64,000 nt of DNA from Candidatus Thorarchaeota archaeon (lineage in GTDB: Archaea > Asgardarchaeota > Thorarchaeia > Thorarchaeales > Thorarchaeaceae), in NCBI GenBank assembly GCA_030612005.1, contig JAUWOU010000005.1:2629-66628 (forward strand), given 5' to 3'. Each line of letters begins with the position of its first letter. Position 1 is the stretch's first letter. Positions 1,674 through 31,364 of this stretch are shown here, in pieces. Made by a program: the position numbers and the translations under genes. The notes beneath the pieces were generated by a model. The model had not been told where the DNA came from. It was given only the letters and a program-made list of their open reading frames with translations, and did not search any database.

Positions 1674-1677
1674 GTAA

Positions 1678-2256: not shown

Positions 2257-2264
2257 CTCAATGT

Positions 2265-4109
2265 TTAGATTAGAAAAGATATCAAAGTCAACGCAAGAAA
2301 TGCGATACCTCCTAAGCGAAGACCGTCTCTTTTTGCGACACCTGCTGCCTCAGCAACATTCTGAGTAAGTGTGTCAAAACCTTTCTCACCTAAGGTTCTA
2401 ATATTTTCGACCTTTCCAAAGCCCAGTCCTGCTAATACTGGTCTGACTAACTCTCTTGCTTTTGTAGCTGCTATCCCGATATGCTCAAGAGTTTCCTCAG
2501 GTTTGATACTTCCTACTGGAGGATATCCCTTACTGGATGCCGAAACAGCATTAACTACGTGAGTATCTGTGGTTGTAATCTCGGCTTTATCAAAGCCTTG
2601 CGTTTTCAGAATGCTAATCACTTCTTCTCTGAAACCTGGTTGAACATTGTTACCATCTACGGATACCAAAGCCATCTCTTGTCCTGCAGTTTTCAGAATT
2701 ATAACAGACACGCCTCCGGGACCGATTCCCTCTTCACAAGTTATATTGTCTGGATATACCGTGTACATTCCCATTTCCAATTTACTTCTGTTTTCATTTT
2801 TTGTAGTAAATACTGCAGCAGAAATAGTTCCGACGTATTCACTAGCTTCAGGATCTCCTTTCATTACTGATACTGCATCTTCATTGATGCAATTGTGAGC
2901 ATCAACAATCGCAACGCCTTTGATGTCTGGTGATTGTTTTCGTATCATATTTGCAGTATCATAACCAACTTCAAGCCCAATATCATCAGTGAATTCTGGT
3001 GCACTAGTACTAATTGTAAGAACATCTGAACCTACGAACATTGTCCAGGTCTTGAATTTATCGCCATCAGTCCAGTGAGGTCCTGATACCGTTGGATGGG
3101 TTTGAGTTTCCTTGATCAACCTATCAACCTCATCAAGTACAATGGGATAGTCCTTTTTGGTCGTGAGGTTTTGATGATGAGTGCAACTTCCATGAAGGAC
3201 AAAGGCAGGAATCCCATGTTTTTCCTGAATGTGCTCCATTATAGCCGACGGGAGACCGCTGCTACCAATGTCCCTGAAGGGTCCTGGATGGACATATTCG
3301 ATAACTCCACATGCAACTAGACCCTCTGAGTCTTTGAAAAGCAAAATCTCCATCGGGACACTTTGGATAGTTGCAATTTTCGTCAGGATTGTTTCCAATG
3401 GCTCAGGATTATCAGCTAACAAGTCGTATCCAAAAGCTCGAAGCACATCTGGCCCGTTTATTCCGAGATCCCTCTCGAATGGGACACTAACAGCTCGATA
3501 GATGTACTGAACTACGAGAGATGGAATTACTATGATTAGAATTGTAGTCACATACCAGTAGGTTCCCAGTGCTGGTAGTGCGGGATTTATGATTGGGAGA
3601 TAGTTCTCAAGGAGTAACCATATCCCAAGGGGTGCTAGTGCTCCAACAAAATGACGATAAATCGAATACGCACTAAGACTGTGGATGATGAATGCAAACA
3701 TAAAGTATGCAACAGCTGCACCTAGCATTAGGAATTTGATCTCGTAACCCTGCGTGGCTAGAACCGCGTCGACGGCTACACCAATAATGCTCAAGATATA
3801 CCATATAATGAAACCAAACATGGTTGCTCCTGCAGTTCTTCTAGGGTCTAGTGGTGAGCCTTCAGATGATCCTATCAGATAGAGCAAGCTGGTCCCCAAT
3901 AATACTGGAATGCCTAGAAGTAGTAGATACATGAACCAAGTGCCATAGAAATCTACGGTTACAGCTGTGAGAGTCTTGACTGCTGCAGAGAGAAATGATA
4001 TACATGTTGTAAGTATGACATGTATTGTTAGAATCCCCCGATAGGTTGGTAATTTGACAATCTTGGTGTATAATCGAACGGTTTCTTTGACCTTTGCCTT
4101 TTCTCCCAA
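2265..4109 (-). CDS. Archaeal membrane protein with a C-terminal soluble domain, DUF2070-like
   Basis: 614-aa ORF with a TTG start. About 8 N-terminal TM helices are followed by a soluble domain with His/Asp-rich motifs (HPGPFRDIGSSG, HGSCTHHQN, DAHNC, TTDTHVVN). The architecture matches my recollection of DUF2070; this was not verified. Confidence 0.55.
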   Translation of the reverse strand: MGEKAKVKETVRLYTKIVKLPTYRGILTIHVILTTCISFLSAAVKTLTAVTVDFYGTWFMYLLLLGIPVLLGTSLLYLIGSSEGSPLDPRRTAGATMFGFIIWYILSIIGVAVDAVLATQGYEIKFLMLGAAVAYFMFAFIIHSLSAYSIYRHFVGALAPLGIWLLLENYLPIINPALPALGTYWYVTTILIIVIPSLVVQYIYRAVSVPFERDLGINGPDVLRAFGYDLLADNPEPLETILTKIATIQSVPMEILLFKDSEGLVACGVIEYVHPGPFRDIGSSGLPSAIMEHIQEKHGIPAFVLHGSCTHHQNLTTKKDYPIVLDEVDRLIKETQTHPTVSGPHWTDGDKFKTWTMFVGSDVLTISTSAPEFTDDIGLEVGYDTANMIRKQSPDIKGVAIVDAHNCINEDAVSVMKGDPEASEYVGTISAAVFTTKNENRSKLEMGMYTVYPDNITCEEGIGPGGVSVIILKTAGQEMALVSVDGNNVQPGFREEVISILKTQGFDKAEITTTDTHVVNAVSASSKGYPPVGSIKPEETLEHIGIAATKARELVRPVLAGLGFGKVENIRTLGEKGFDTLTQNVAEAAGVAKRDGLRLGGIAFLALTLISFLI

Positions 4110-4181
4110 TATAGTGTCACTCTCACGTGTTTAGGTCGTAACTTATCTAATTCTTATCAAATTTGTCCTAGGTCAGCTATG

Positions 4182-15158: not shown

Positions 15159-17591
15159 ATGCAATTATTCGAGACATTCCTATTTCAGATGTCTTTGCTA
15201 GAACAGACCATGATTGGGATTGTTATATTAGCAGCATTTGTAAGTCTCGTGTATGCCTGGTGGCTGAGGAAAGGCGTTCTTGCCCAACCAAAGGGTACAG
15301 AACAAATGCAGAAGGTCTGGAGAGGTATTCGAGATGGCTCCTTGTCTTATCTTGACAGGCAGCTGAGGACCATCATACCGATTCTAATCGGATTATCCGG
15401 CCTTCTATTCTTAACAGTATACATTACAACACCAGAAGCAGGTACTGCAGAACTATTTGGTATTGACATTACTGATCCTCCTGAAGTGTATCAGGCCGCT
15501 CTAGCTAATGCTAGATGGGTTGTTGGTCTTGGTCGTGCAATAGCATTTATTTTCGGTGCAAGCTTTTCATTGATTGTTGGACAACTCGGTATGCGTATCG
15601 CAGTTGAATCCAACATCAGAGTTGCTCAGGCTACACGTGACGGCGATAATAGATACAATCGAGCACTAACCATTTCTTACCGTGGAGGCACATTCACTGG
15701 AATGTTGACCGACGGTCTTGGTTTGCTTGGTGGAACAATGATATTCATCATCTACGGCTTAGCAGCCCCAGATGCACTCCTTGGATTTGGTCTTGGAGGA
15801 ACTCTCCTCGCCCTATTCATGAGAGTTGGCGGTGGTATCTACACTAAAGCTGCAGATATTGGAGCTGATTTGGTTGGCAAAGTTGAGCATGGACTCCCTG
15901 AAGACGATCCAAGGAACGCAGCAGTAATTGCAGACCTTGTAGGCGACAACGTCGGAGACTGCGCTGGAATGGCTGCAGACATCTTCGAATCATACGAGGT
16001 CACTATCGTTTCATCTCTGATTCTCGCAATTGTACTCTATCTTGAAACAGCTGCCGGGCACTTTCCAATGCTTCCTGGTGGTGCACTTGCAGTGGTTGTA
16101 TTCCCACTCTTTATTCGAGCAATTGGTGTGATTTCATCAATCATTGGAACTATCATGGTTCCAATCTGGCCTCGGATTCTGAAGACGCGAGATGTATATG
16201 CAGAGAAAGCGATGTTCCTTTCTTACGAAGTTTCGAGTGCCTTCACAATTATCCTGTCAATGCTTTTGTCATGGTTCTATGTTGGAGATATTCGCTTTGG
16301 AATATTAATTGGAACGGGTGTATTGCTTGCTGTGTCATTCAACCCACTCACAAGCTACTTCACATCACTGAAGAAACCTCCAGTCCAAGAGATTGTCAAA
16401 GCCACAGATACTGGTACTGCAACAATGATACTCTCGGGTATTGTTGCTGGATACGAGTCCACAGTAGCAGCTCTAGTTGTGATTGTTACAACTTTTGGAA
16501 TTGCATGGTGGCTATTCACAGCATCTGCAGTTGCCGCTCTGTCACCTCTCGTTGTAGTTGGTATTGAGGGTACAATCTGGACCCTTTACGGAATTGCACT
16601 GATTGGTATTGGAATGCTTTCCCACACTGGAAACAATGTGGCAATGGACGCATTTGGTCCAATCTCAGACAACGCAGCTGGTATAGGTGAACTCTCACCT
16701 GGTGACTTTGATACTGAATCAAGGAAGACCATGGCTGAGCTTGATGCAGTTGGTAACACAACCAAGGCTATCACAAAGGGAATCGCAATCGCTTCTGCAG
16801 TAATTGCTGCAGTTAGCCTCTTTGATGCCTTCATATTTGTTGCAATACTACCTCTTGGTTTGGACCACTTGTTCCTTGATGATCCTCGAGTATTCTCAGG
16901 ATTACTCTTGGGTGCCGCACTACCTTGGTTATTCTCAGCTGTGAATATCAAAGCAGTTACGCGTGCAGCAGGTGAAATGGTGAAGGAAGTTCGAAGGCAA
17001 TTCAAGATTCCTGGAATCTTAGAAGGTACGAAGGAGCCTGACTATGAACGAGCTGTAAATATCTCAACAACTGCAGCTCAGAAGGAGCTCATCTCCCTAA
17101 CTGTTATCACAGTTTCCACACCAATTATAGTCGGACTTCTACTTGGAGTTGCGGCTCTTGGTGGATTCCTTGGTGGAATCATCGTGTCTGGTCAACTGCT
17201 TGCAGTCTACATGTCTAATGCTGGTGGTGCCTTCGACAATGCGAAGAAAGCCATCGAAGATGAACCAGTAGATCTCGAAGCCAATACTGGCAAGGGATCG
17301 GAACGGCACAAGTCTGGAGTTATTGGTGACACCGTGGGTGATCCACTCAAGGACACTGCTGGGCCTGCTCTCAACCCAATGATCAAAGTAGTCAACCTAC
17401 TAGCTCTGATATTGGCTCCACTTCTGGTCATGCTTGAAACCACTGGTACTCCGGAAATGGTATATGCTGCTACTGCAGCACTCATCATCCTATCCGTGAT
17501 GACCGTCTGGGCTATTCGTAAGAGCATGAGACCTGCTGACTTCGGTACGGTTCATGAATTCACCGAAGAAGAAGGCGTCCTAGCAGAGTAG
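15159..17591 (+). CDS. hppA: Membrane-integral ion-pumping pyrophosphatase (M-PPase), predicted K+-independent type
   Basis: Diagnostic motifs GGGIYTKAADIGADLVGKVE, DNVGDCAGMAADIFESY, AMDAFGPISDNAAGI, GNTTKAITKG, SNAGGAFDNAKK and GDTVGDPLKDTAGPALNPMIKV. The true start may be ATG 15189 or 15210. Confidence 0.9.
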   Translation: MQLFETFLFQMSLLEQTMIGIVILAAFVSLVYAWWLRKGVLAQPKGTEQMQKVWRGIRDGSLSYLDRQLRTIIPILIGLSGLLFLTVYITTPEAGTAELFGIDITDPPEVYQAALANARWVVGLGRAIAFIFGASFSLIVGQLGMRIAVESNIRVAQATRDGDNRYNRALTISYRGGTFTGMLTDGLGLLGGTMIFIIYGLAAPDALLGFGLGGTLLALFMRVGGGIYTKAADIGADLVGKVEHGLPEDDPRNAAVIADLVGDNVGDCAGMAADIFESYEVTIVSSLILAIVLYLETAAGHFPMLPGGALAVVVFPLFIRAIGVISSIIGTIMVPIWPRILKTRDVYAEKAMFLSYEVSSAFTIILSMLLSWFYVGDIRFGILIGTGVLLAVSFNPLTSYFTSLKKPPVQEIVKATDTGTATMILSGIVAGYESTVAALVVIVTTFGIAWWLFTASAVAALSPLVVVGIEGTIWTLYGIALIGIGMLSHTGNNVAMDAFGPISDNAAGIGELSPGDFDTESRKTMAELDAVGNTTKAITKGIAIASAVIAAVSLFDAFIFVAILPLGLDHLFLDDPRVFSGLLLGAALPWLFSAVNIKAVTRAAGEMVKEVRRQFKIPGILEGTKEPDYERAVNISTTAAQKELISLTVITVSTPIIVGLLLGVAALGGFLGGIIVSGQLLAVYMSNAGGAFDNAKKAIEDEPVDLEANTGKGSERHKSGVIGDTVGDPLKDTAGPALNPMIKVVNLLALILAPLLVMLETTGTPEMVYAATAALIILSVMTVWAIRKSMRPADFGTVHEFTEEEGVLAE

Positions 17592-17650: not shown

Positions 17651-17748
17651 ATTTCAAATCGAACAAACAACAACCTTTTCTTCATTCGTTTTGTAAATGT
17701 ATATCCGCGCGACAGAATCTTTGAGGGGATTTACCTTTGGACGGAGAA

Positions 17749-18885
17749 ATGACGCCAAGCAATCAGATGGACGGGCATGAGTTCACTGTGTGGTCATTGG
17801 CAATTACGCCAAATGGTCAGATGATAATATCCGGTGGACAGGACGCTACTATTCGACTCTGGGATTTTACATCTGGAAAAGAAGTTCACAAATTTATTGG
17901 ACATGAAGGTCCTGTCTATAATATGGTAATGATGCAAGATGGAAAGCACCTTGTATCTGTGGCTGACAAAGATCTTGCAGTAAAGATCTGGAATATTGAA
18001 AATCAAGAGCTAGTAAGTTCCCTCGCACCAAATTCTGCTCACGTAACTGCAGTAGTAGTAAGTCCTGACCAGCGATTCTTAGTTACTGGTGGAGATGATG
18101 GTTTCGCTAGAATTTGGGATATAGACCGTGGGATTCTACTACGATCATTAGAACATGAATATGGTATCTATAGCATGACCATAAGTCCTGATGGACGACA
18201 CTTACTCTGTGGTAGTAAACGAAAACCTGGAGAGAGATATCCCGGTGTTGTCTGGATTTGGGACTTTGAACTAGGCGTGCAACTGAAAACTCTCAGCGGA
18301 CATATGGGTCATGTGACTGCAATAACTATGACTGCTGATTCCAAGTATGTACTCTCAGGAGATCAGCACGGTTCAGTTTACCTGTGGGATTTAGAAACTG
18401 GGACCTTGTTGAAAACGATGTCCGGGCATAATGCCCCAATTCTGACGATTCATGTATCTCATGATGGTCAACATGTTATTACTGGGTCCCCAGATGGCAC
18501 TGTACGGGTTTGGATTCTTCGAGGTGGTGTTCTTCTAGCTGATCTCACTCACACTGAAAATGTCCACTCACTTATCGTAAGCCCAGATTGCCGACATGTA
18601 ATCACAGGTTCGATGGAAGGGGCTGTGCAAGTTTGGGATTTTGACATGACCAGTCCGTGGATTGATCCCTCCAAGGAATTAGCAGAAGAAGCAAAAGCCG
18701 AGCTTGAAGCCTTCAGAATGCTCCAGTTGAGGAAAGTCATGACACGGTATGAAACACTACCACTGCTCAGGTTGGCAACACTTCTCCGTTTTGAAAGTCT
18801 TGAAGAGCTCGAAGATTGGCTTCTCGACCTACCTGTCGATATGCCTGTAAAAATCGACGGTCCACTCCTAGTAATCAAGAAATGA
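17749..18885 (+). CDS. Seven-blade WD40 repeat protein with a C-terminal PCI-like winged-helix tail
   Basis: Seven GH..(V/I)..(V/I)..SPDG..(V/I)(S/T)G..DG.(V/I).(V/I)WD repeats. The tail LPLLRLATLLRFESLEELEDWLLDLPVDMPVKIDGPLLVI resembles the PCI/PINT WH segment. ATG 17749 is preferred over TTG 17737. Confidence 0.85.
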   Translation: MTPSNQMDGHEFTVWSLAITPNGQMIISGGQDATIRLWDFTSGKEVHKFIGHEGPVYNMVMMQDGKHLVSVADKDLAVKIWNIENQELVSSLAPNSAHVTAVVVSPDQRFLVTGGDDGFARIWDIDRGILLRSLEHEYGIYSMTISPDGRHLLCGSKRKPGERYPGVVWIWDFELGVQLKTLSGHMGHVTAITMTADSKYVLSGDQHGSVYLWDLETGTLLKTMSGHNAPILTIHVSHDGQHVITGSPDGTVRVWILRGGVLLADLTHTENVHSLIVSPDCRHVITGSMEGAVQVWDFDMTSPWIDPSKELAEEAKAELEAFRMLQLRKVMTRYETLPLLRLATLLRFESLEELEDWLLDLPVDMPVKIDGPLLVIKK

Positions 18886-22557: not shown

Positions 22558-23211
22558 TTAGGTCGCTTCTGGAATTTGAGGTCTCCAAATCTCACGTGTG
22601 ACAGGGTTATAGAGCAATCTACCTCGTGAAACTAGGATGATTACATAGAGGAAGTGTTTCAGAAATAGATCAAACTTGTCACTCTCGACAATGTTATCGA
22701 AAATGACTTTTCCTTCTAAAGGGATTGAGCTTAGGAATTTCTCCAAGTCTTCTATGAAGATAGAGTCTTCAGTATCAAGTGCAAATCCATTTGGTAGTGG
22801 AGTCATTTCTGGAATCTTATCTTCGGGGGGTTCCTTCGACAACGCTTCAATGAGCTGTACCACTCTTTCAAGAGATGCTCCAAGTGAAGAATGTTCAAGG
22901 TGTCCTATAACAACTGGTTGTTTCTGTACAAGTAGTTTAGCTAGATTCTTTGTTGATTTTCCCTTTATACGAGCTACATAGATTTCAGGAGATGCTATGA
23001 CTCGCGCGAGTTCTTGGACTCTGTTTACCTTAACACCGAGGACCTCGTTTAGCATCTCGTCAATGTCCAATCTGCTATCGAGCTTTTCAGCTAGCTCCTG
23101 TAGTTCTCTATAAGAATCAGTCAATCTAATTTCGAGAGGATCTACATCACCTGAACGAGCCGCCTGCACAATTTGGTAAACCCGTTCTGCTAGGCTTTCA
23201 TTCTTAGACAT
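22558..23211 (-). CDS. Kleisin-like SMC partner (ScpA/Nse4-like)
   Basis: 217 aa. N-terminal helix motif DVDPLEIRLTDSYRELQEL (compare ScpA eiDI..I.I..IT.QYL.YL). C-terminal WH FLKHFLYVIILVSRGRLLY. The ATG is preceded by GGAGG and lies 12 nt after the SMC stop. Confidence 0.6.
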   Translation of the reverse strand: MSKNESLAERVYQIVQAARSGDVDPLEIRLTDSYRELQELAEKLDSRLDIDEMLNEVLGVKVNRVQELARVIASPEIYVARIKGKSTKNLAKLLVQKQPVVIGHLEHSSLGASLERVVQLIEALSKEPPEDKIPEMTPLPNGFALDTEDSIFIEDLEKFLSSIPLEGKVIFDNIVESDKFDLFLKHFLYVIILVSRGRLLYNPVTREIWRPQIPEAT

Positions 23212-23223
23212 CTATTATTCCTC

Positions 23224-26200
23224 CTACTGTCCTTTGAACTTGGGACTTTCGATAATTACCGACGGCTCAACACCATTTGGTGAAACCACTCCAAGTATCT
23301 TGTCCGCGTGTTTCAGAAGATGAGTGCTCTTTGCAGGTGTAAACAGAACAAATTGACTTCTTCTAGATGCATCATGCAATAATCTACTAACAAGCTCAGT
23401 ATTTGTTGCATCAAGAAATGTATCTACTTCATCAAGGACATACACTGGAGCAGGGTTGAATCTTTGAAGTGCCAGGATGAGTGAAATAGCAATGAGAGAC
23501 CTCTCTCCACCTGATCCTGCACTAATAGCTCCGAACCCTTCAGCTTTGATTCTTGATTTGAATTCTACTCCATAGTCACCATCACGCATTGCCAACTCAA
23601 ATCGTACACTTCCCGGAAATTGCACACTTCCAAGAACTTCGTTGACTCCTTTCTCGACCTTTCGAAGTGTTTCGTTCATACCGTTATGGTATTGCTCACG
23701 GATACTCTTGACTGTAGATTCTGCTTCATCAAGTTCTTCATGAAGTTCTGTAACTTTCTCAACAAGTGTCATCAGACGGTCTTTAAGTTGGGTTTCTGTA
23801 TGAGCTACGGTTTCTGAAACATCCTGATAATCATCGAGTATGTGTCGCAATTTAATAAGTTCATTTCTAACTTCATCTAGGGGTCTCACAGTTTCTGGTT
23901 GGTCTAATCCATCTAGTTCTGCTTGTAGGTTCTCTATTTCATATTCCATATTGGTGAGTTGCCTTTTCCCTTGCAGAACCTGAAGCTTCCGTTCTTTAAT
24001 CATGAGATTGAGTTCTACCATTCTTCCACTGATTGCCCTATTTGTTTCCTTAAGACCAGCCAAATCTTCGAGAAGTGTTGTACGTTTATTTTCAGTCTGA
24101 TCTTGACTTGATTTCATTACCTCAATCTTCTCAAGTATCTCTGAAGTTGCATTTTTCGATTCCTTAATCTCTATACGTAGTTCTTTCAAACTATTGGAAA
24201 ATATTTCAACATCTTCTGATATTCGCTTCAGGTCTTGACGCTTTATTTCTTCATCTCTCTCTGCTGCATTTGCTCTACTATCGATTGCTGTGAGCTCTGT
24301 CTGTAAACGTCTTTGTTTAATCCTAAGTGCTGAATCCTGCCCCACCAATCTACTTCGTTCAGGAGGTTGAGTATTGTCCAGTTTTCTAAGATCTCTCTCT
24401 GCCTTTCCTATGTCCGCTTGAAGTAACTTCAGCTCATCATCAAGTGCAACAATCCGCTCTTCCTGCTCAGGTATAGTATCAAGTAACTTCTTTCGGCGTT
24501 CCCAAGTTCCACTCCATCGAGTCATTTGACTGAGTAGATCAAGAACCTCCTCACGTTGAGCCGTCAGGTTGTCCAGATTTGTCATTGTATCTGTGACTTG
24601 CTTGCGTGAGATTGTGAGTTCCTTGCTAGCCCTTGACAGCCTACTTTGAAGTGGTGCAGTTGAGACCATTCCAGAAGGTACTAACTTTGGATTACTTACT
24701 ATCTTTCCGTCGTCTGGGATAATGACCTGTCCATCAATCGTAACTGCTCGCAGATTCTCTTTCGTTGCAAGCCTAGTGGCAGTTCTTACCGTCTTCGTGA
24801 CCACAAAGTTTCCAATGGCTTTCTGCAATAAGTGCTGGGTTTCAGAATCAACGTTAAGATTGTCCCAGAGCCACCCCTCTACTCCAGAAGAGCTCTTGAG
24901 TGTTGGTCGCTCATACAATTCTCCTGAATCTTTCAATAAGATGAGTGGTGAGGGAGCTTCTTCGTTATCTCGTAATTTTTGAAGAATTTGGAAATCCGTT
25001 TCTTCTGTAACGATAAAGGCTAGAGCAAGATTATCTGAGAGGACTGACTCTACTGCGGTTGCAATGGAATCATCAGCACTGAATACTTCTATCAACGGCC
25101 CCGTGACTGATTCTAACTTATGCTCTGTTATTGCATCTTTCAGATTCCGTACACTTTCAGGCATTCTCTTTGAGGTTTCTGACAATCGTACGTTGAGATC
25201 ATCAATCTCTTTCTGTAAGGTTGCAACCAAACTACTCTGTCTAAATCGCTCTTCATTTAGTGTTGCAATCTCCTTCTCAAATTGTCCCTTTCGACGAGTT
25301 AGTTCCTTCTCATCCGATTTCTCCATGATTGTCCAGACGTGAGACCACTTACTTTCGATTGCTTGCAGTTCTGCTTCCTCAACTTGAACTCGTTCTCTTA
25401 CACTTCTGAGGAGCAGATCTTTTCCCTCTATCTCAGCCTGAAGCGCCTTGTATTTGCCATGTGTTTCTGCTCTTTTAGTATTCCATTCTGCAAAAGCTTC
25501 CAATTCATCTCGAATTTTGGAACGTTCTTCTTCTATTTCTTGAATCTCTACTCGAAATTCTCTCTGTTTTTCCATGGTAGATTCTTTTGTCGCAGTAATT
25601 CGGTCAATATCTTCTTGGAGTTTCTCTTTGCGCTTCTTCTCTGAGTTGACTTGTTTCTCTAGCTCACGAAGCTCGCTTACTTGTTTCTTAGAGTCGCCCT
25701 CTAACCGTGCAAGATTTCTTTCTTCTTCCTCAATTTTAGCATCAATTCTACCTATTTCCACCTGAATGTTAGAGAGAGCAGTAGTAAGTTCCTCCGTTTC
25801 AGATTCATTATCAGATATACTAGATTGAATCTGGGTCTGCTCATCAAGAATCGAAACAAGACCTGATTCTTTCCCCTCGATTTCTTCTTTGATTTTTTGG
25901 ACTCTTTCTATGATATCATTTAATGACGCCCATTTTAAATCATGTTCAAGTGACTTTTCTTGCTCCAGAAAAGCTCGTTTTTTGTCCAATCTACTGAGGT
26001 CATGCTGGAGAAGTTCTAGTTCTCGCTCGACTGATTTTGATTCTGTAAGCGCGGTTTCCAACCTGTGCCGACTCTGAATTACCGCGGTTTCTTGGAGAAT
26101 AATTCTATCTCTTAGAGCATCAAGACCTGTTCCTTCTTCTACAAGTCTACGCACTTCGTAGGGATCCATATCTCGAATTGCATTGATTCTTTCCTGAGGA

Positions 26201-26595
26201 ATGAAAACTAGTGGATTATCTGTATCCAAACCGAATGAGTCTACAATATGTCGTAATTCTGCAGCCTTGACTCTACGTCCATCTACATATGCTCTTGGAA
26301 TTCCATCTCTGTCAATTTTACGTAGAAACTTCCTATTCTGACCATTTACTTTTACAGTGACCTCTACTTGGGCAGTACTGGCTCCATGACGGATGAAATC
26401 ACTCCACTTGGAATACCGATTCTCTCGCTGATTTGATCCAAGGGCAAATTTGAGTGCATGGAAAATCGAGGTCTTGCCAGATCCATTGGGTCCTGCTATC
26501 ACTGTGAGTCCTTTGTCAAAGAATACTTCCCCTGAGTAGAATGAGAGGAAGTTATCCAACTTTGCAGACTCTATGTGAGCTCTAACATTACTCAA
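23224..26595 (-). CDS. SMC-family ATPase with hinge; head motifs are SMC5/6-like rather than canonical
   Basis: 1123 aa. Walker A GPNGSGKT, long coiled-coil arms, a hinge block GPLIEVFSADDSIATAVESVLSDNLALAFIV, signature SGGERS and Walker B VYVLDEVD. Non-canonical FIPQERI and QFVLFTPAK. TTG start preceded by AGGAG. Confidence 0.9.
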   Translation of the reverse strand: MSNVRAHIESAKLDNFLSFYSGEVFFDKGLTVIAGPNGSGKTSIFHALKFALGSNQRENRYSKWSDFIRHGASTAQVEVTVKVNGQNRKFLRKIDRDGIPRAYVDGRRVKAAELRHIVDSFGLDTDNPLVFIPQERINAIRDMDPYEVRRLVEEGTGLDALRDRIILQETAVIQSRHRLETALTESKSVERELELLQHDLSRLDKKRAFLEQEKSLEHDLKWASLNDIIERVQKIKEEIEGKESGLVSILDEQTQIQSSISDNESETEELTTALSNIQVEIGRIDAKIEEEERNLARLEGDSKKQVSELRELEKQVNSEKKRKEKLQEDIDRITATKESTMEKQREFRVEIQEIEEERSKIRDELEAFAEWNTKRAETHGKYKALQAEIEGKDLLLRSVRERVQVEEAELQAIESKWSHVWTIMEKSDEKELTRRKGQFEKEIATLNEERFRQSSLVATLQKEIDDLNVRLSETSKRMPESVRNLKDAITEHKLESVTGPLIEVFSADDSIATAVESVLSDNLALAFIVTEETDFQILQKLRDNEEAPSPLILLKDSGELYERPTLKSSSGVEGWLWDNLNVDSETQHLLQKAIGNFVVTKTVRTATRLATKENLRAVTIDGQVIIPDDGKIVSNPKLVPSGMVSTAPLQSRLSRASKELTISRKQVTDTMTNLDNLTAQREEVLDLLSQMTRWSGTWERRKKLLDTIPEQEERIVALDDELKLLQADIGKAERDLRKLDNTQPPERSRLVGQDSALRIKQRRLQTELTAIDSRANAAERDEEIKRQDLKRISEDVEIFSNSLKELRIEIKESKNATSEILEKIEVMKSSQDQTENKRTTLLEDLAGLKETNRAISGRMVELNLMIKERKLQVLQGKRQLTNMEYEIENLQAELDGLDQPETVRPLDEVRNELIKLRHILDDYQDVSETVAHTETQLKDRLMTLVEKVTELHEELDEAESTVKSIREQYHNGMNETLRKVEKGVNEVLGSVQFPGSVRFELAMRDGDYGVEFKSRIKAEGFGAISAGSGGERSLIAISLILALQRFNPAPVYVLDEVDTFLDATNTELVSRLLHDASRRSQFVLFTPAKSTHLLKHADKILGVVSPNGVEPSVIIESPKFKGQ

Positions 26596-26610
26596 GTTTT
26601 CTTCTCCTAG

Positions 26611-27681
26611 TTAACGACCCATTATTCTGTGAAGTCTATCGCTACTTTTCTTTGCTCTAAGCAATCGTGTAAGACGATCTTCTGGACTGCCATTCAAAAG
26701 GTAGGGGTGCTTCGCAAGAAACTCCCTATCATTTTTTGATAGTGGCATTCCATCATTCAACACCTCTATGATCCGTTGGGTTCCAGCGTAGTCCTCTCCA
26801 ACAGCCATCAAGTAAAGTTGATCTAGAAAGTCGTCTGGATATTCGCTACTGAGAGCTTCCATTGGTGGTTGAGTTGTACCTGCAGTCCTTCTAACAACAG
26901 AATCGAGAAATCGAGGGTTACTTAGCGGTATTACTCCACTATTCTCAATAATCTCTTCTATTTGCTCTCGAGGTATCTGGCCAGTTTCATTAGTTTCCGA
27001 CATGAATAGTGATACTGATAGTCGCTTCATGCTTGTAAAGCTCCACCCATCAGTAAGTTCAGCAACTACTGTTGGGTCGATATCCTTCCTGTTTCGCAAG
27101 ACTTGTTCAAGGATACGAACTCTATCCTCCAATGAAGTGCCTTCAATGATGTAGGTTCTATCAAATGATGAGAGAAGCTCTGCATCGATATCACTTGGAC
27201 GAGTTGTTGTACCTATTACCAACACTTCCTCCCCATCCCAACTTGTTCTAGTGATCTCGTCAAGAAGTATAGCCGACTGGTCACTATTACCTGGAGCGAC
27301 TGCGTCTAACCTCTCCACCAACATCACTGTAGGAGAGTTCCTTCGTGCGAACTCAAACCCAACTCTAATTAACTCAGAACCTCTTTTAGCCTCATTGAGA
27401 ATTTCCTCCATTTTGAACCGTACCATTTTTAGTGGTACATCTCGACAAAGATGGTGAGAAAATGCTTCAAAGTCCGTTCCTGGTGGTCCAATAAGGAGTA
27501 CTCTTGCACCAAATTCTAGACCCGCCTCTGACATGTTTCGTTTAAGGATATCATAGCGACTCATCAATGATTGATGTTCCATTGCTTTTGTCACAACAGA
27601 GTACTGACTTATTCTCTCTGCAGGTTGTTTCTCTGGTTCTGTCAGGGTGACTGCTTCTGCATAGTTTATTTCTTCGCCCAA
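26611..27681 (-). CDS. AAA+ fold protein with all catalytic motifs degenerate (pseudo-ATPase); first gene of the SMC operon
   Basis: Classical AAA backbone (VLLIGPPGT.., ..PTVMLVERLDAVAP.., VLVIGTTTRPSDIDAELLSSFDRTYII). Walker A is GPPGTDFE (no Lys), Walker B has DE replaced by ER, sensor-1 has N replaced by T, and the Arg fingers are lost. The start is uncertain (TTG 27681 or a later ATG). Confidence 0.7.
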   Translation of the reverse strand: MGEEINYAEAVTLTEPEKQPAERISQYSVVTKAMEHQSLMSRYDILKRNMSEAGLEFGARVLLIGPPGTDFEAFSHHLCRDVPLKMVRFKMEEILNEAKRGSELIRVGFEFARRNSPTVMLVERLDAVAPGNSDQSAILLDEITRTSWDGEEVLVIGTTTRPSDIDAELLSSFDRTYIIEGTSLEDRVRILEQVLRNRKDIDPTVVAELTDGWSFTSMKRLSVSLFMSETNETGQIPREQIEEIIENSGVIPLSNPRFLDSVVRRTAGTTQPPMEALSSEYPDDFLDQLYLMAVGEDYAGTQRIIEVLNDGMPLSKNDREFLAKHPYLLNGSPEDRLTRLLRAKKSSDRLHRIMGR

Positions 27682-27905
27682 CTTGTAACCCCACGGTTTG
27701 ACCTTTAGTTTTTTTTTCTTGAAGCCATATTACATCTTCGGAGTGGAATAAATTTCCGCGCGCTTCACAGTTAGTTAGTTTTGAAATACTATGAACTCTT
27801 GGTTTCAACATTAGAGCAGTTCAAACTTAGGTCCATGATATTTCGCGCCTCATTATGCGAAGTTCATAAGCGTTATAGAGCTACAATATTGTAGGCTGTG
27901 TTACA

Positions 27906-29615
27906 ATGAGCATTCCTTCAGACAAGCTGAGAGAGTTAGTGAATAGTGTAGTAATGACAGTAGAGAGTAGAGGTCTCTTTGTTCATTCTACAGACCTCGA
28001 AATCAAGTACACTTCTAGTAGTAAGAACAAAAAGATTCAGACTGCTAGACTTCCTCTCATAGTCGGAACTTGCGTTCTCAATGCACTGGTTCCGCGATCT
28101 GCTATGTTGTTGGTTGGAGGTCATGGTGGCGGAAAAACAACGCTGGCCAAAATCCTTGGTCGGATGATGACAGGGAAGAGTCTTGAAGAAATTGAGGATG
28201 GCATTCTGCGCGGCCATTCAGGTCTTACAGAAGAAAAAATGGTCGCTACACTTCGACCTGGACCACTAATAAAAGACGGAATTGAAGTTGTTGTCTGGCG
28301 CTCATTTGTGACTGGTTTCTGGAAGATCATTGATGAAGTTAATCGACTCACTCCATTCTCTCAAAATATCCTCCTATCTCTGCTTGCAGAGGGTGAGGTG
28401 AAATATTATGATGAGGTTAAGAGATGTGAGGAATTCTGTCTATATGCTACCCTCAATCCAGCTGATGCAGGAACCTTCGATATGGGGCCTCCGTTCCTCG
28501 ATAGATTTGGGATGGCAGTTCCAATAACGATGCCGACTGTGAGCGACCTTGAACTGATACTTGCGGCGAGGGATGACCGCTTGTTTGGCTACGATGAGTT
28601 ATGGCAAGTCCCAGCTCTTCTGACAGAAGAAAATCTCTTGACCATATGGAATCTGGCTGATAAGGTTTCAGTATCATCTGAGGCTTCCGAATACTTGAGA
28701 TCCATCGTTCGAGAGTTTGGAGCTTGCATACGAGGTGACAAGAGCCAATCCTCCGGTCTTACAGTAGAAACAGGTCTCTGTGATGGATGTCATTTCAATA
28801 CCGCAAAGAGTGTCTGTAACAAGGTGATTATACCACTCAGTGTTAGAGCGGCAAAAGACCTGAATAGATACTCAAAGGCAGCCGCATGGCTTGTTGGAGC
28901 CCAGGAAGTGACCATCGCGATTGTGAAGTCATTGGCACCTCTTGTCTTCTGGCATAGAACTCGATTTGTGCGAGATGAATCAGAGAGGTCTCCGTACTAT
29001 GGTGATATCTATGCGTTCACACAACATCTTGTAGAATTAGCCTCAGCTAGGTTCGCGCAGAGAGGGGCCGCAGTAGAAATTATTGGGAATCTGAAACACG
29101 GCAAGCAATCAAAGGAGGCAATCGATCAACTCAAAGAGATGTCCAAGAGTGATTTACTTGTTCGGCTTGATTATGCCAAGTTTGCTAAGGAACTAAAGAA
29201 ATCAAAATATGCAAAGACAGTCCAAAGTATAGAACGAGGGATCAAAGATCGAGATGTTGACAAACTCACAAAATTACACGATGAGTTACTTCGTGATACA
29301 GACTTTCCTAACCGAAGTATGCTTCTGAAACAAACCTTAGATGCTCTGCACAAATTGACATTGACACAATTTGAATTGACATTTGAGCAATGGCAGGATA
29401 TCTGGAGCACGATTGGAATTAGTTATCCACTATTAACTCCCGTTCTCAAAGAGACCTTAGAACCTCCCAAAAGGAAAGTTCTCAGGATAGACGGTTTCAC
29501 TTTAGTGATCTACGTGACTGGTGACTCCCCTGAGTCTTCAGTCTTTCTTGAGATATCTGGTGGCTCTGAGGCATTGAAACTGAAGAAAGAGTTGGAGGAC
29601 CAGTTGAAGTCATAG
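27906..29615 (+). CDS. MoxR-like AAA+ ATPase with a Cys-containing lid insert and a ~190-aa C-terminal extension
   Basis: Walker A GGHGGGKTT, Walker B/sensor KIIDEVNRLTPFSQNILLSLLAEGEV, ATLNP and FLDRF. Lid segment VRAAKDL..AAAWLVGAQEVT...LVFWHRTRF, with the insert C-x17-CDGC-x9-C. Confidence 0.75.
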   Translation: MSIPSDKLRELVNSVVMTVESRGLFVHSTDLEIKYTSSSKNKKIQTARLPLIVGTCVLNALVPRSAMLLVGGHGGGKTTLAKILGRMMTGKSLEEIEDGILRGHSGLTEEKMVATLRPGPLIKDGIEVVVWRSFVTGFWKIIDEVNRLTPFSQNILLSLLAEGEVKYYDEVKRCEEFCLYATLNPADAGTFDMGPPFLDRFGMAVPITMPTVSDLELILAARDDRLFGYDELWQVPALLTEENLLTIWNLADKVSVSSEASEYLRSIVREFGACIRGDKSQSSGLTVETGLCDGCHFNTAKSVCNKVIIPLSVRAAKDLNRYSKAAAWLVGAQEVTIAIVKSLAPLVFWHRTRFVRDESERSPYYGDIYAFTQHLVELASARFAQRGAAVEIIGNLKHGKQSKEAIDQLKEMSKSDLLVRLDYAKFAKELKKSKYAKTVQSIERGIKDRDVDKLTKLHDELLRDTDFPNRSMLLKQTLDALHKLTLTQFELTFEQWQDIWSTIGISYPLLTPVLKETLEPPKRKVLRIDGFTLVIYVTGDSPESSVFLEISGGSEALKLKKELEDQLKS

Positions 29616-29627
29616 AGGCTTAGATAA

Positions 29628-31364
29628 ATGGAATCTTACAGCAACACACCAGTAGAGCAAGACACACTCAGAGTGGTTGCTGGACAGGCATGGTTTCGAG
29701 CAATTCAAGACTTCTATCATCCACCTCTACCTGAGCCTGAGATTGAACACATTCACGGAGCTTCTAGTTTCTTTTATATTGATACTGATAGTTGGACCGT
29801 TCATCTGAATACTGCTGGAGTACCAGTACATATGATAGCCTCAGACGCAGAGAATTATCTGACATCAGTATGCCATCATGAAATCCAGCATTATCTTCTA
29901 TGTCCGTTTGATGGCGTAATGAATGGGAGAATGTTTGTAGCTGCTCGAAAGCATGTGAATGATGCTACAGCTATGTTTGTTTGTAACCTCTTTGCAGATT
30001 TTGTGGTAGACTCTAATCTTCTAAGAAGATTTACTGATCTCACTCATAAGAGAATCAACTCATCAATCCATGATTCTGCTATACGTATACATGACCATAG
30101 CGACCTCTGGAAATTAATCGTTACTTGCTACAGAGTGATGTGGGGTTTTCCAATTCCGCCAACTGTGAAAATTGATCAGAATATCTTTGAAACTGCAAAT
30201 GAGATTGTGGACGTAGTTCGCGGTACAGTAGAGCACGAACACAAGTGGCCCAAGGCTTGTGAGAAGATTGCGAAAATAATCTCAGAGTGGATACCAGAGG
30301 ATGAGGAAGGATTGCCTGGAACTTCTTCTGGAGGGTCTAAGAATGTTGAGCATGAGAATGCAGATGGTTTGGAGGAAACGATAGAAATTCCCCTTGATGT
30401 GGATGCGATAATGGGTAACCCTGTTGAAGCAAGGAATGGAGACCGTGCAAAGAAATGCATAGAACGTCTTGAGAGACCTAATTTAGAAGAAGAGATGGAA
30501 CGACTAGCGATTGACGTTGAGCAGCTAGGTGGGGACATCGAGGATTTACAAGGTGTTTACCGTACAGCTGGAGTTGGTTCTGAACGAGCTGCGTGGACAA
30601 GATTTTGGTACAGGGCAAAAGCTCACAGAGCAATTAGATTTGAGGTTGATACGAAAAAGATGACTGGTTCAATTCCTCTTACTCCTGAAGTTTGGAGGTT
30701 GGGTGATCCACTTGAAGAACTTGATATTGTACAATCTCTTCAGACATTTCCTATTCTAATTCCTAATCGTTCAACGAGAAAATGGCAACAATATGAAACC
30801 ACCGGAACTGAGATTTCAAAATCGCCTCCTGATATGTTGATAGTCATTGATTCTTCAGGTTCAATGACTTGGGCTATGAGAACTCGTACGATATCAGGTG
30901 ATTATCATACCGCCTTGGTTGCTGCTTTTGCAGCGATGGATTTTGCATTTAGGCGTGGTTGCAGAGTCGCTGCCATAAATTTCAGCGATGGTACTAGTAC
31001 ATGTGATTGGTCCAATGAACGTACTCCCGTAGAAAGAGTCCTCCTATCTTACCAAGGCGGTGGTACAGTAGCCCCAGTCAAGAAGATTGTTGAAGCATGT
31101 GATAAAGCTGAATCCGATGTGATTGCTCTACTCATTACTGATGCAGAGGTTTCCAACTGGAAACAAATGGTTAAGGGTGTGGAGAAGTTGTCAAAACGTG
31201 GACACAAGCTCTTCTTGTTCCATATAGGTGCTGGAAAGAGCTCTCGAACATCCGCGATTCATCAATCTCTTTCCAAGGCAGGAGCCACTGTCTATCCTAT
31301 CAAGTCAGCAAAGGATCTTCCGGGTCTTGTAGTACGCGAAGTGCGCTCTGTTTACAGAAAATAG
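29628..31364 (+). CDS. HExxH metallopeptidase-like domain fused to a VWA domain (MoxR partner)
   Basis: The N-terminal part carries VCHHEIQHYLLCPFDG (HExxH). The C-terminal part carries MIDAS DMLIVIDSSGSMTW and a Rossmann-like VWA pattern. It starts 12 nt after the MoxR-like gene. Confidence 0.75.
   Translation: MESYSNTPVEQDTLRVVAGQAWFRAIQDFYHPPLPEPEIEHIHGASSFFYIDTDSWTVHLNTAGVPVHMIASDAENYLTSVCHHEIQHYLLCPFDGVMNGRMFVAARKHVNDATAMFVCNLFADFVVDSNLLRRFTDLTHKRINSSIHDSAIRIHDHSDLWKLIVTCYRVMWGFPIPPTVKIDQNIFETANEIVDVVRGTVEHEHKWPKACEKIAKIISEWIPEDEEGLPGTSSGGSKNVEHENADGLEETIEIPLDVDAIMGNPVEARNGDRAKKCIERLERPNLEEEMERLAIDVEQLGGDIEDLQGVYRTAGVGSERAAWTRFWYRAKAHRAIRFEVDTKKMTGSIPLTPEVWRLGDPLEELDIVQSLQTFPILIPNRSTRKWQQYETTGTEISKSPPDMLIVIDSSGSMTWAMRTRTISGDYHTALVAAFAAMDFAFRRGCRVAAINFSDGTSTCDWSNERTPVERVLLSYQGGGTVAPVKKIVEACDKAESDVIALLITDAEVSNWKQMVKGVEKLSKRGHKLFLFHIGAGKSSRTSAIHQSLSKAGATVYPIKSAKDLPGLVVREVRSVYRK

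Follow-up and report, generated by a model that had tools for sequence, protein, structure and literature searches.

Which part can an AAA protein play at the head of an SMC operon once its active site has degenerated? The question is raised by a 64,000-nucleotide stretch of a Candidatus Thorarchaeota genome (contig JAUWOU010000005.1; hereafter the window), in which an open reading frame, whose product we give the working name AAAx, lies directly upstream of an SMC gene (Table 1). A first-pass annotation, made without database searches, had read the product as a catalytically dead AAA+ protein and its gene as the first of the SMC operon. Our analysis favours, with a probability of about 0.6, the reading that AAAx is a non-catalytic accessory or regulatory subunit of a non-canonical, probably SMC5/6-related, Asgard SMC-kleisin-kite complex, an association that is inferred from gene neighbourhood only.

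Table 1. Coordinates of the AAAx gene, its domains and relic motifs, and the neighbouring features in the window.
Feature	Coordinates	Strand	Size, residues or sequence	Basis and remarks
AAAx, catalytically degenerate AAA-fold protein	26611..27681	(-)	356 aa	TTG start; end coordinate counts the stop codon
Relic P-loop	27466..27489	(-)	AAAx residues 65-72, GPPGTDFE	Asp70-Phe71 in place of the Gly-Lys of GxxxxGK[ST]
Relic Walker B	27304..27327	(-)	AAAx residues 119-126, VMLVERLD	Asp to Glu123; catalytic Glu to Arg124
Second region of homology	27157..27213	(-)	AAAx residues 157-175, GTTTRPSDIDAELLSSFDR	Alignment and homologue conservation
AAA lid, small helical subdomain	26941..27132	(-)	AAAx residues 184-247 (approximate)	AF2 helices
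C-terminal helical domain, family-specific	26614..26841	(-)	AAAx residues 281-356 (76 aa), YPDDFLDQLYLMAVGEDY...RLLRAKKSSDRLHRIMGR	Conservation, AF2
Spacer between AAAx stop and SMC start	26596..26610	(-)	15 nt, ctAGGAGaagaaaac	Sequence; Shine-Dalgarno-like AGGAG at 26604-26608
SMC, non-canonical paralogue	23224..26595	(-)	1123 aa	Pfam SMC_N and SMC_hinge
p217, kleisin candidate	22558..23211	(-)	217 aa	Position after SMC; weak profile links
Divergent intergenic region, AAAx/MoxR gene	27682..27905	(.)		Presumed promoters
MoxR-type AAA+ ATPase	27906-29615	(+)		Pfam AAA_5 and AAA_lid_2; divergent from AAAx
VWA-domain protein with HExxH motif	29628-31364	(+)		Pfam VWA; pair with MoxR spans 27906..31364

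AAAx retains the AAA fold and has lost the catalytic motifs

Residues 61-178 of AAAx match the Pfam AAA profile (PF00004) with an E-value of 6e-13 (49.8 bits, against a cutoff of 21.2), and a phmmer search of the PDB aligned the protein with NVL, with both the D1 and D2 domains of Cdc48/p97, with AFG2 and with PAN (E-values down to 2e-18). The AF2 model has a pLDDT of 83.8 and retrieved only classical AAA proteins in Foldseek, the top matches being FtsH, PAN, p97 and spastin (E about 1e-12). On the Pfam match and the model, AAAx satisfies the criterion for an AAA alpha/beta plus lid fold. The lid carries a near-invariant TDGW motif, with W213 nearly invariant among 73 family representatives, and is separated from the C-terminal domain by a linker that AF2 predicts with low confidence. 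Most members of the family are annotated as 'hypothetical protein', while Thorarchaeota members are misleadingly annotated as 'ATP-binding protein', 'AAA family ATPase' or even 'FtsH 4'.

AAAx has the same fold and block order as the classical AAA ATPases (Cdc48/p97, NVL/Rix7, AFG2, PAN/Rpt and FtsH; PF00004), sharing with them the position of the P-loop, the Walker B strand and the skeleton T-x-R-P-x-x-[IL]-D...F-D-R. It differs from them in that the Walker A Lys and Thr, the Walker B Asp-Glu, the sensor-1 Asn and both Arg fingers are replaced. In the PDB alignments GPPGTDFE lies opposite GPPGTGKT, VMLVERLD opposite IIFIDEID, TTTRP opposite ATNRP, and LLS--SFDR opposite LRRFGRFDR; within the second region of homology the sensor-1 Asn has become Thr160 and both Arg fingers are gone, with a two-residue deletion. 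AAAx fails the Walker A (GxxxxGK[ST]), Walker B (hhhhDE) and sensor-1 Asn/Arg-finger criteria of classical AAA ATPases. The four substitutions listed by the first-pass annotation are thus real and in register by both Pfam and PDB alignments, and profile and pairwise alignments put the motifs where that annotation had put them, with none of them intact. AAAx also lacks the aromatic pore-loop residue (A-K-R-G where K-[YFW]-[VI]-G is usual), and has a single AAA module without a Cdc48-type N-terminal substrate domain, followed by an unrelated 76-aa C-terminal domain.

The replacement residues are themselves conserved. All 107 full-length homologues share D70 and F71 (107/107); residue 123 is E in 93 of them, residue 124 is K or R in 104, and residue 160 is T in 92 and N in only one. 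Given this near-uniformity, the substitutions are fixed in the family and not due to chance. A relic of the form G-x-[D/E]-hydrophobic takes the place of GK in Thorarchaeota, in Loki CR-4 (PPGEDI) and in most other lineages; only one of 73 full-length representatives, the Helarchaeales protein P0170, keeps the P-loop lysine (GTGKS), and it keeps the sensor-1 Asn too, with the Walker B Glu and the Arg fingers absent. Judged from sequence alone, AAAx no longer hydrolyses ATP and almost certainly no longer binds it in the canonical way, and the inactivation is likely to be ancient and selected. The claim that the protein is catalytically dead is supported to that extent, as no other kind of evidence bears on the ATPase loss.

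The loss of every catalytic motif could also be read as the mark of a decaying AAA ATPase remnant (a pseudogene) or of an annotation artefact. Against this, over 100 homologues keep the 356-aa frame unbroken, the substituted residues do not vary and the gene is transcribed in metatranscriptomes. The dN/dS ratio is 0.10-0.13 for AAAx and 0.03-0.06 for its C-terminal domain, compared with 0.06-0.07 for SMC. AAAx is under purifying selection, and the selection and conservation data lead us to reject the pseudogene reading, which is all but excluded.

The C-terminal domain is the hallmark of the family

The helical C-terminal region of about 150 aa in the first-pass annotation held only in part: it consists of the ordinary AAA lid and a separate, family-specific domain. 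The latter is the most conserved and constrained part of AAAx and the hallmark of the family; it terminates in a basic helix (RLLRAKK..DRL), and AF2 folds it on its own with a pLDDT of 87.4. It defines 107 clusters at 50% identity, nearly all of which carry the domain at the extreme C-terminus. The named members are all Asgard archaea, except for one doubtful Bathyarchaeota label, and include the cultured Lokiarchaeum ossiferum.

A Foldseek search of the PDB with the isolated domain gave no fold match (best E-value 4.1), and a PDB sequence search gave no significant match. Identification of the domain as a winged-helix, kleisin-like or other known SMC-binding module was unsupported by these searches. 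As no known SMC-binding module matched, the docking role that we propose for it below is a guess from conservation.

AAAx is linked to an SMC paralogue across Asgard archaea

In all 52 Thorarchaeota-type species-representative loci recovered with AAAx, the gene is followed by SMC and then p217 wherever the contig allows, and additional Thorarchaeota loci found from the SMC side and checked individually all have AAAx upstream. The adjacency is also present in Lokiarchaeia CR-4, Helarchaeales, Lokiarchaeum ossiferum and other Asgard MAGs, at protein identities below 20%. Distant AAAx homologues lie directly upstream of SMC in locus L093 (hhalign probability 99.9), in Loki CR-4 (probability 96.3, E-value 1.6e-9), in L102 (probability 96.4), and in L100 and L103. 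All seven distant members examined (P0137, P0170, P0152, P0185, P0219, P0163 and P0180) precede SMC; five of these loci also have kleisin-sized and kite-sized genes, and the remaining two contigs break off inside SMC. The complete four-gene order is found in L. ossiferum (AAAx is NEF87_002455). A protein search with a widened AAAx alignment returned only Thorarchaeota among its best 120 matches.

AAAx was never found away from the SMC paralogue in any locus examined. Conversely, no AAAx C-terminal domain was found within 3.5 kb of canonical SMC-ScpA-ScpB loci of Asgard archaea, Bathyarchaeia or Halobacteria. Two scans with SMC-head alignments were swamped by the generic Walker-A pattern, mostly recovering bacterial SMC loci, and were used only as negative controls. 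Within the loci examined, AAAx strictly co-occurs with the SMC paralogue in a fixed gene order and is absent from canonical Smc-ScpAB loci. The identities of AAAx, SMC and p217 drop in parallel between loci, and the locus therefore looks vertically inherited. One sequence, P0087, had the appearance of an AAAx-ScpB fusion and was set aside; its 1.4-kb contig switches abruptly from AAAx residues 1-250 to a ScpB-like tail and more probably reflects a chimeric assembly.

The genes are tightly packed and co-expression is supported

The AAAx stop codon (26611-26613) is separated by the 15-nt spacer from the TTG start of SMC at 26595. In 68 Thorarchaeota locus records the gap is 3-19 nt; overlaps of 4 nt occur at some loci, and a few distant loci have larger gaps of about 50-110 nt once SMC starts are corrected. 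We infer from the 3-19-nt gaps or 4-nt overlaps that AAAx and SMC are co-translated. All three genes, AAAx, SMC and p217, are covered by metatranscriptome contigs, two of which (26442-26623 and 26372-26632) span the AAAx/SMC junction. The short gaps or overlaps and these two contigs therefore fit co-expression; however, the junction-spanning contigs enter AAAx by only 10-19 nt, so a promoter within the 3' end of AAAx is not excluded. At the other end of the gene a contig (27531-27680) stops at the AAAx start codon, and the DNA from about -39 to -23 relative to the AAAx TTG is A-rich. A related strain has a 1063-nt insertion in the intergenic region between AAAx and the MoxR gene. One run labelled RNA-Seq (X5) was DNA-like, its depth being uniform and its 8-kb contigs running through divergent genes, and was excluded as expression evidence.

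The first-pass annotation had also placed the stop 15 nt upstream of the SMC start with a Shine-Dalgarno site in between, proposed co-expression and made conservation of the adjacency in related genomes its test. The spacing and the site held, co-expression is supported, and the adjacency is kept in every Thorarchaeota locus with sufficient contig and in distant Asgard lineages. The position of AAAx as first gene of the operon held as well; gene neighbourhood alone supports the step from there to an accessory subunit.

That step can be questioned. AAAx might have a function unrelated to SMC, for instance as a scaffold or chaperone-like factor in another process, and merely share the operon, for example for cell-cycle co-regulation. 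In favour of this, operon membership does not prove complex formation, and neither PDB sequence searches nor Foldseek recognised a known SMC-interaction module in AAAx. Against it, adjacency and order outlast divergence to below 20% identity in several Asgard classes in which the other neighbours all change, no examined locus has AAAx without the SMC paralogue, and the gaps and overlaps point to coupled translation. Coupled translation is typical of stoichiometric partners. We consider an unrelated function unlikely.

The downstream genes encode a non-canonical SMC and a kleisin candidate

In the SMC protein, Pfam places SMC_N at residues 8-1105 and SMC_hinge at residues 495-610, and the Walker A (GPNGSGKTS), Q-loop, signature (SGGERS) and Walker B (LDEVD) motifs are intact. 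With its head motifs, coiled coil and hinge it meets the SMC criterion of an SMC-kleisin-kite operon. It scores below the cutoffs of the canonical equivalogs (TIGR02169, 278 bits against 729; TIGR02168, 262 against 567).

The kleisin candidate p217 starts 8-16 nt past SMC in all Thorarchaeota loci. It has no Pfam or NCBIfam match and no significant PDB sequence match, with only weak PDB matches to the C-terminal winged-helix domain of ScpA (5xg3_C, E-value 0.07; 4i99_C, E-value 0.7). By hhalign it is transitively linked to ScpA, through a kleisin-like set (probability 86) that in turn matches ScpA (probability 85). No kite gene lies beside p217 in the window, where the next gene encodes an MFS transporter on the other strand. 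After the kleisin candidate, some Thorarchaeota loci carry a gene of 165-196 aa, as do L093, L097 (from the Loki CR-4 assembly), L103, L111, L270, L272 and L276; these kite-sized genes have only weak winged-helix, ScpB or DUF4194 matches and no significant PDB sequence match.

Neither p217 nor its relatives matched ScpA (PF02616), and no kite matched ScpB (PF04079) above threshold (best E-value 0.018). The same test on true canonical loci, as a positive comparison, gave E-values of up to 1e-13 for ScpA and 1e-33 to 1e-37 for ScpB. With neither the equivalog scores nor the ScpA and ScpB criteria met, the locus is not a canonical Smc-ScpA-ScpB locus. Ranking of PDB profile scores failed to separate SMC5/6 from SMC1-4 for its SMC. 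The complex is nevertheless likely to be SMC5/6-related, a label that we take from published work on one Thorarchaeota genome and one Loki CR-4 genome and not from a phylogeny of our own: a table in bioRxiv 10.1101/2024.01.07.573240 lists as SMC5/6-related both SMCs of the former and the only SMC of the latter, and scores Nse1/3-related kites for both genomes.

SMC proteins also occur in defence. A further reading casts the four genes as a mobile system of the Wadjet or Lamassu type, directed against phages or plasmids, in which AAAx would serve as sensor or effector. In favour of this, PADLOC gives generic matches of the SMC head to LmuB, mad3 and JetC and a weak match of AAAx to IetA (22 bits), and the L093 kite weakly resembles DUF4194/MksE. 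Against it, all PADLOC matches are weak and confined to shared ATPase folds, p217 has none, the operon contains no nuclease or other effector gene, housekeeping neighbours are stable across the whole class, the locus looks vertically inherited, and SMC is full length with a normal hinge. The criteria for Wadjet JetABCD and for Lamassu are unmet; the defence reading is very unlikely and was rejected.

A MoxR-VWA pair adjoins AAAx in part of the range

The MoxR-VWA pair adjoins AAAx divergently in every Thorarchaeota locus, and in the Helarchaeales locus L269 a VWA homologue precedes AAAx co-directionally, with 11 nt between the two. Neither MoxR nor VWA is present in the Loki and other Asgard loci examined. 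A functional link between AAAx and the pair is possible and remains unproven.

This arrangement bears on a further alternative, in which AAAx would join an active ATPase, such as Cdc48, PAN or MoxR-VWA, in a mixed assembly as its non-catalytic member, targeting that machine to SMC for loading, unloading or turnover, or would bind nucleotide non-canonically. In its favour are the MoxR-VWA adjacency in Thorarchaeota and the co-directional VWA homologue in Helarchaeales, as well as the nearest relatives of AAAx, which are Cdc48/NVL/PAN-type domains. Inactive AAA subunits within active assemblies also have established precedents, such as FtsHi of the Ycf2 motor, one of the fold matches of AAAx. 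The GTGKS motif and sensor-1 Asn of the Helarchaeales member mean that nucleotide binding is possible at least in that lineage. Against a mixed assembly, AAAx lacks the Arg fingers and the ATP site through which classical AAA rings normally cohere, and MoxR and VWA are missing outside Thorarchaeota and Helarchaeales in the loci examined. AAA similarity is mostly undetectable across the family, with only 9 of 73 representatives matching Pfam AAA, which argues against a conserved ring interface. We regard this alternative as improbable.

Comparison with known AAA proteins and SMC accessory subunits

Non-catalytic structural subunits of the AAA/AAA+ type include FtsHi of the chloroplast Ycf2 motor, the D1 rings of Pex1/Pex6 and the clamp-loader delta and delta-prime subunits, and they sit in rings or spirals beside active paralogues. 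As in these proteins, the AAA fold of AAAx has been selected after loss of the nucleotide site, presumably for binding. Unlike them, AAAx has no evidence of a ring partner, and its conserved genomic partner is an SMC (ABC-type) ATPase and not an AAA protein.

Like the known SMC accessory subunits (the kites ScpB, MukE and Nse1/Nse3, the hawks, Nse5/Nse6 and Nse2), AAAx is encoded, and presumably acts, with an SMC-kleisin core. It would resemble Nse5/6 in being an extra partner, neither kite nor kleisin, of an SMC5/6-type complex, a functional analogy only. No sequence or fold similarity to SMC accessory subunits was found by Pfam, Foldseek or PDB sequence searches, and no SMC accessory protein is known to have an AAA fold. 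Archaeal SMC5/6-related operons have been described as three-gene SMC-kleisin-kite operons (Yoshinaga & Inagaki 2021, PMC8665677; bioRxiv 10.1101/2024.01.07.573240), and the genes downstream of AAAx fit this description, with a non-canonical SMC, a kleisin candidate outside the ScpA model and a kite candidate outside the ScpB model. In the literature searched we found no description of AAAx, as the first-pass annotation had supposed for a pseudo-ATPase SMC accessory: the papers on Asgard SMC operons give SMC, kleisin and kite and no AAA gene. The text and supplements of the bioRxiv study make no mention of an AAA protein or fourth subunit, with 'AAA' occurring in the supplements only in taxon labels.

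A proposed role for AAAx

AAAx is the first cistron of a tightly packed Asgard operon, AAAx - SMC - kleisin (- kite), and retains the classical AAA fold, alpha/beta subdomain and lid, which in the reading that we prefer serves as a scaffold. Its C-terminal domain may dock on SMC or kleisin, or on DNA, and its part in the SMC ATPase cycle would be that of an adaptor, loader or regulator and not that of a motor. Physical binding, the binding surfaces and the direction of any regulatory effect are all inferred, without protein-protein contact data. Gene order alone can mean co-regulation without complex formation, which limits the subunit reading.

A bolder form, to which we give less credence than doubt, makes AAAx a stoichiometric fourth subunit of an Asgard SMC5/6-type complex, which would have lost its ATP site before the Asgard classes diverged and serve as a fold-only scaffold, a counterpart by function and not by descent of Nse5/6 and Scc2/4, the loader or regulator modules on which eukaryotic SMC5/6 and cohesin depend. 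It is conceivable, further, that through the MoxR-VWA pair of Thorarchaeota and Helarchaeales AAAx links the loading or removal of SMC with an AAA+ remodelling machine.

Asgard archaea are the closest known relatives of eukaryotes, and their two SMC systems are discussed as ancestors of condensin/cohesin and of SMC5/6. To our knowledge no mechanism for loading or regulating archaeal SMC has been identified; ParB-type loaders are lacking and the role of the kite is itself questioned. Given this gap, a conserved gene at the head of the operon that previous lists omit makes AAAx a concrete candidate for the missing regulator, and its presence in the cultured L. ossiferum makes the subunit idea directly testable. 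If the idea is true, AAAx would be the first protein with an AAA fold to be linked to an SMC complex. It also offers a clean example of a pseudo-enzyme in which the dead active site is itself conserved.

A degenerate AAA protein encoded ahead of SMC

AAAx, a protein with a catalytically degenerate AAA fold, is encoded directly ahead of an SMC protein and of p217, a kleisin candidate (see the table). The AAAx stop codon and the SMC start codon are separated by 15 nt that include AGGAG. The SMC protein matches Pfam SMC_N over its entire length, contains a hinge domain and has an intact Walker A, Q-loop, signature and Walker B, while scoring 278 bits, far below the canonical SMC equivalog threshold of 729. 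The divergently transcribed neighbours encode a MoxR-type AAA+ ATPase, whose Walker A and B motifs are intact, and a VWA protein of 578 aa that carries an HExxH motif (HHEIQH, about residues 83-88). Close homologues of AAAx were found exclusively in Candidatus Thorarchaeota MAGs, and near-identical DNA is present in cold-seep and marine-sediment metagenomes. Genes for a WD40 protein and a membrane H+-pyrophosphatase, a few kb away, are ordinary in Asgard genomes and unrelated to AAAx.

Features of the window and of loci fetched from other genomes (L-numbers)
Feature	Source	Position	Strand	Details
AAAx	window	26611..27681	-	356 aa, TTG start, first of three tightly packed ORFs
SMC	window	23224..26595	-	1123 aa, TTG start, second ORF
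p217	window	22558..23211	-	217 aa, third ORF
MoxR-type AAA+ gene and VWA-domain gene	window	27906-31364	+	divergent, upstream of AAAx
AAAx-MoxR intergenic site	window	27807-27837		
WD40 beta-propeller protein	window	17737-18885	+	382 aa
Membrane H+-pyrophosphatase	window	15159-17591	+	
MoxR gene without VWA	L093, uncultured archaeon	2480-4177		adjoins AAAx
VWA-protein homologue	L269, Helarchaeales	1-471	as AAAx	ends 11 nt upstream of AAAx
Small Arf/Ras-like GTPase	L097, Lokiarchaeia CR-4-type	3083-3625	as AAAx	shortly upstream of AAAx
Small Arf/Ras-like GTPase	L111, Lokiarchaeia CR-4-type	963-1514	as AAAx	shortly upstream of AAAx
HEAT-repeat protein	L276, Lokiarchaeum ossiferum	276-3857	as AAAx	1193 aa, ~3 kb upstream of AAAx
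Third operon type	L195	4471-7535		
Third operon type	L196	294-3982		
Third operon type	L205	4489-7491		

The AAA fold is retained without its catalytic residues

Pfam AAA matches AAAx at residues 61-178 (E=6e-13), and phmmer searches of the PDB aligned it with NVL, Cdc48/p97 D1 and D2, AFG2 and PAN. In these alignments GPPGTDFE replaces GPPGTGKT at Walker A, VMLVERLD replaces IIFIDEID at Walker B, TTTRP replaces ATNRP at sensor-1, and the Arg-finger region reads LLS--SFDR rather than L(R)xxGRFDR, so every substitution listed in the first-pass annotation held. The pore-loop position is A-K-R-G; AAAx lacks both the pore-loop aromatic and Arg fingers, which makes a role as hexameric unfoldase very unlikely.

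An AlphaFold model built from 31 homologues (pLDDT 83.8) consists of an N-terminal hairpin and long helix, an AAA alpha/beta subdomain, a lid (about residues 184-247), a low-confidence linker and a C-terminal helical domain (residues 283-355). Foldseek searches with this model returned classical AAA proteins and nothing else. The earlier claim of a 150-aa C-terminal helical domain held only in part, as this region comprises a normal AAA lid and a distinct 76-aa domain. No relative of that domain was detectable by PDB sequence search or by Foldseek with the isolated domain.

The substituted positions are themselves conserved among 107 full-length homologues: all share D70 and F71, which replace Gly-Lys; 93 have Glu at position 123, 104 have Lys or Arg at position 124, and 92 have Thr at position 160, where one has Asn. 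AAAx retains only the fold of an AAA protein, its nucleotide-site residues having been swapped for other, conserved ones. It is conceivable, though speculative, that the relic P-loop Asp pairs with the Arg/Lys at the former catalytic-Glu site and fills the empty pocket.

Compared with three orthologues, AAAx has a dN/dS of 0.10-0.13 (SMC, 0.06-0.07; p217, 0.085-0.105). Its C-terminal domain is the most constrained segment (0.03-0.06), with Q288, P313-L314, L340 and A343-K344 invariant. The low dN/dS and the conserved dead-site residues argue against AAAx being a pseudogene, a reading that is all but excluded; AAAx is a pseudo-enzyme under selection, and the C-terminal domain is the constrained element that defines its family.

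Gene order is conserved in Thorarchaeota

Scanning GTDB species representatives with the AAAx alignment recovered 52 Thorarchaeota loci (37-94% identity). In each, where the contig permits, SMC and a p217 homologue follow on the same strand, and the MoxR and VWA genes adjoin AAAx divergently upstream in every locus. A scan started from SMC added further Thorarchaeota loci, and all those checked individually have AAAx upstream. The gaps are 3-19 nt between AAAx and SMC (68 locus records, some being one contig fetched twice) and 8-16 nt between SMC and p217. Mere co-regulation of AAAx with SMC, without a shared function, is an unlikely explanation.

The MoxR-VWA pair, which may be functionally linked to the operon, was missing from the examined loci of Loki and other Asgard archaea. 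That AAAx serves as an adaptor to an active AAA+ machine, this MoxR-VWA pair included, is unlikely. Single MoxR or VWA genes adjoin AAAx in L093 and L269 (see the table). At the AAAx-MoxR intergenic site, a related-strain contig (95-99% alike) from run X5 has 1063 additional letters where 29 would stand, possibly an insertion element in the divergent promoter region.

In the window the gene after p217 encodes an MFS transporter, on the opposite strand, and not a kite (a tandem winged-helix SMC partner). A 165-171-aa kite-like gene directly follows the kleisin candidate in other Thorarchaeota lineages (L025, L031, L040, L045 and L049), suggesting that the kite gene was moved or lost from the operon in the window lineage.

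The family extends across Asgard archaea

Distant SMC loci also have an AAAx-homologous gene directly upstream of SMC. Profile comparisons supported homology in L093 (hhalign probability 99.9), in L097 and L111 from the Loki CR-4 group (probability 96.3, E 1.6e-9, 343 columns) and in L102 (probability 96.4), whose Bathyarchaeota label is doubtful since its nearest relatives are Asgard. Partial ORFs upstream of SMC in L100 and L103 contain the C-terminal domain.

The 84-aa C-terminal profile alone, run exhaustively with HMMER against 1.84 billion cluster representatives, yielded 107 clusters at E<=1e-3. The domain lies at the extreme C-terminus of proteins of 320-620 aa; shorter entries are fragment-like. 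Members carry the names Helarchaeales, Lokiarchaeia, Sigynarchaeota and 'Promethearchaeota', and include hypothetical protein NEF87_002455 of the cultured Candidatus Lokiarchaeum ossiferum. An SMC homologous to that of the window follows in L. ossiferum and in all seven distant members looked up (P0137, P0170, P0152, P0185, P0219, P0163 and P0180). Genes of kleisin size (216-260 aa) and kite size (171-195 aa) come next in L. ossiferum and in five of the seven; in the other two the contig stops within the SMC gene. An interpretation of the operon as a defence system is very unlikely.

Only 9 of 73 full-length representatives still match Pfam AAA, which accounts for the 'hypothetical' annotation of most members. 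Many lineages share a P-loop relic of the form G-x-[D/E]-[I/L/F] (PPGEDI, NPGSDI, PEGTDF, SIGSEL), and GxxxxGK[ST] survives in a single representative, Helarchaeales P0170 (GPLGTGKS). Together these patterns suggest, from sequence alone, that inactivation predates the divergence of the Asgard classes. P0170 retains the sensor-1 Asn, has Pro for the Walker B Glu and lacks the Arg finger; Helarchaeales may preserve an intermediate state.

Several other gene arrangements were observed. A small GTPase gene lies near AAAx in two CR-4-type loci. In L. ossiferum a glycoside hydrolase gene and an HD-domain gene lie between AAAx and a HEAT-repeat gene, whose product has faint matches, the condensin Cnd1 family among them; the proximity of the HEAT-repeat gene is probably coincidental. 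P0087 (354 aa, on a 1399-bp ENA contig) joins AAAx residues 1-250 to an ScpB-like winged-helix tail (Pfam ScpB and AAA); it appears to be an assembly chimera rather than a real fusion. It does indicate that its Thorarchaeota also encode an ScpB-type kite elsewhere.

Association with one type of SMC

The canonical SMC loci examined belong to Asgardarchaeum abyssi, Bathyarchaeia, Halobonum and DPANN. Their ScpA and ScpB genes match Pfam clearly, and no AAAx C-terminal domain was found within 3.5 kb of any of them. The kleisin and kite candidates of AAAx-linked operons fall below the ScpA and ScpB models. We consider p217 a probable kleisin, based on a transitive link to ScpA through a third kleisin-like set (hhalign probabilities 86 and 85) and weak PDB matches to ScpA C-terminal domains.

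Two SMC-kleisin-kite operons have been reported in Asgard and TACK archaea, one condensin/cohesin-like and one SMC5/6-like (PMC8665677; bioRxiv 10.1101/2024.01.07.573240). The preprint's table lists two 'SMC5/6-related' SMCs in one Thorarchaeota genome, and one plus an Nse1/3-related kite in Loki CR-4, the assembly behind L097 (bioRxiv 10.1101/2024.01.07.573240). We provisionally label the AAAx-linked SMC as SMC5/6-related on this published table, as we have no phylogeny of our own and PDB scores did not separate the SMC classes.

A third operon type, in Thermofilales-type archaea and one uncultured archaeon, encodes a short SMC-like protein (572-639 aa, N-terminus VILENFMSY...GPNGSGKSS) with kleisin-like (242-251 aa) and kite-like (177-197 aa) genes and no AAAx gene.

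Expression

In four metatranscriptome runs from related populations, p217, SMC and AAAx are partly covered by short contigs, and two of these contigs (26442-26623 and 26372-26632) span the AAAx stop and SMC start. This evidence that the operon is transcribed is weak but consistent. Another contig (27531-27680) stops exactly at the AAAx TTG, with an A-rich tract about 23-39 nt upstream; the two would be compatible with an archaeal TATA-like box and a leaderless mRNA, which is no more than a hint. Run X5, labelled RNA-Seq, behaved like DNA and was dropped as expression evidence.

A putative SMC accessory subunit

We lean towards AAAx being an accessory or regulatory subunit of the SMC-kleisin-kite complex (probability about 0.6); the association is inferred, without binding data. 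AAAx would act as a binding protein working with this complex, docking through its C-terminal domain. Eukaryotic SMC5/6 has additional partners that are not kites, and AAAx would be analogous to these in role without sharing their descent. Papers analysing archaeal SMC-kleisin-kite operons describe three genes only (PMC8665677; bioRxiv 10.1101/2024.01.07.573240), and the full-text literature searched yielded no account of SMC complexes with an AAA or pseudo-ATPase partner, which is absence of evidence given incomplete coverage. Within that literature, it would be new for an SMC complex to have an accessory protein whose fold had not previously been linked to SMC, the subunit role being inferred. 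The existence of a cultured host, L. ossiferum, adds to the interest of the family, and AAAx is relevant to how the archaeal complexes ancestral to eukaryotic SMC complexes may have been regulated.
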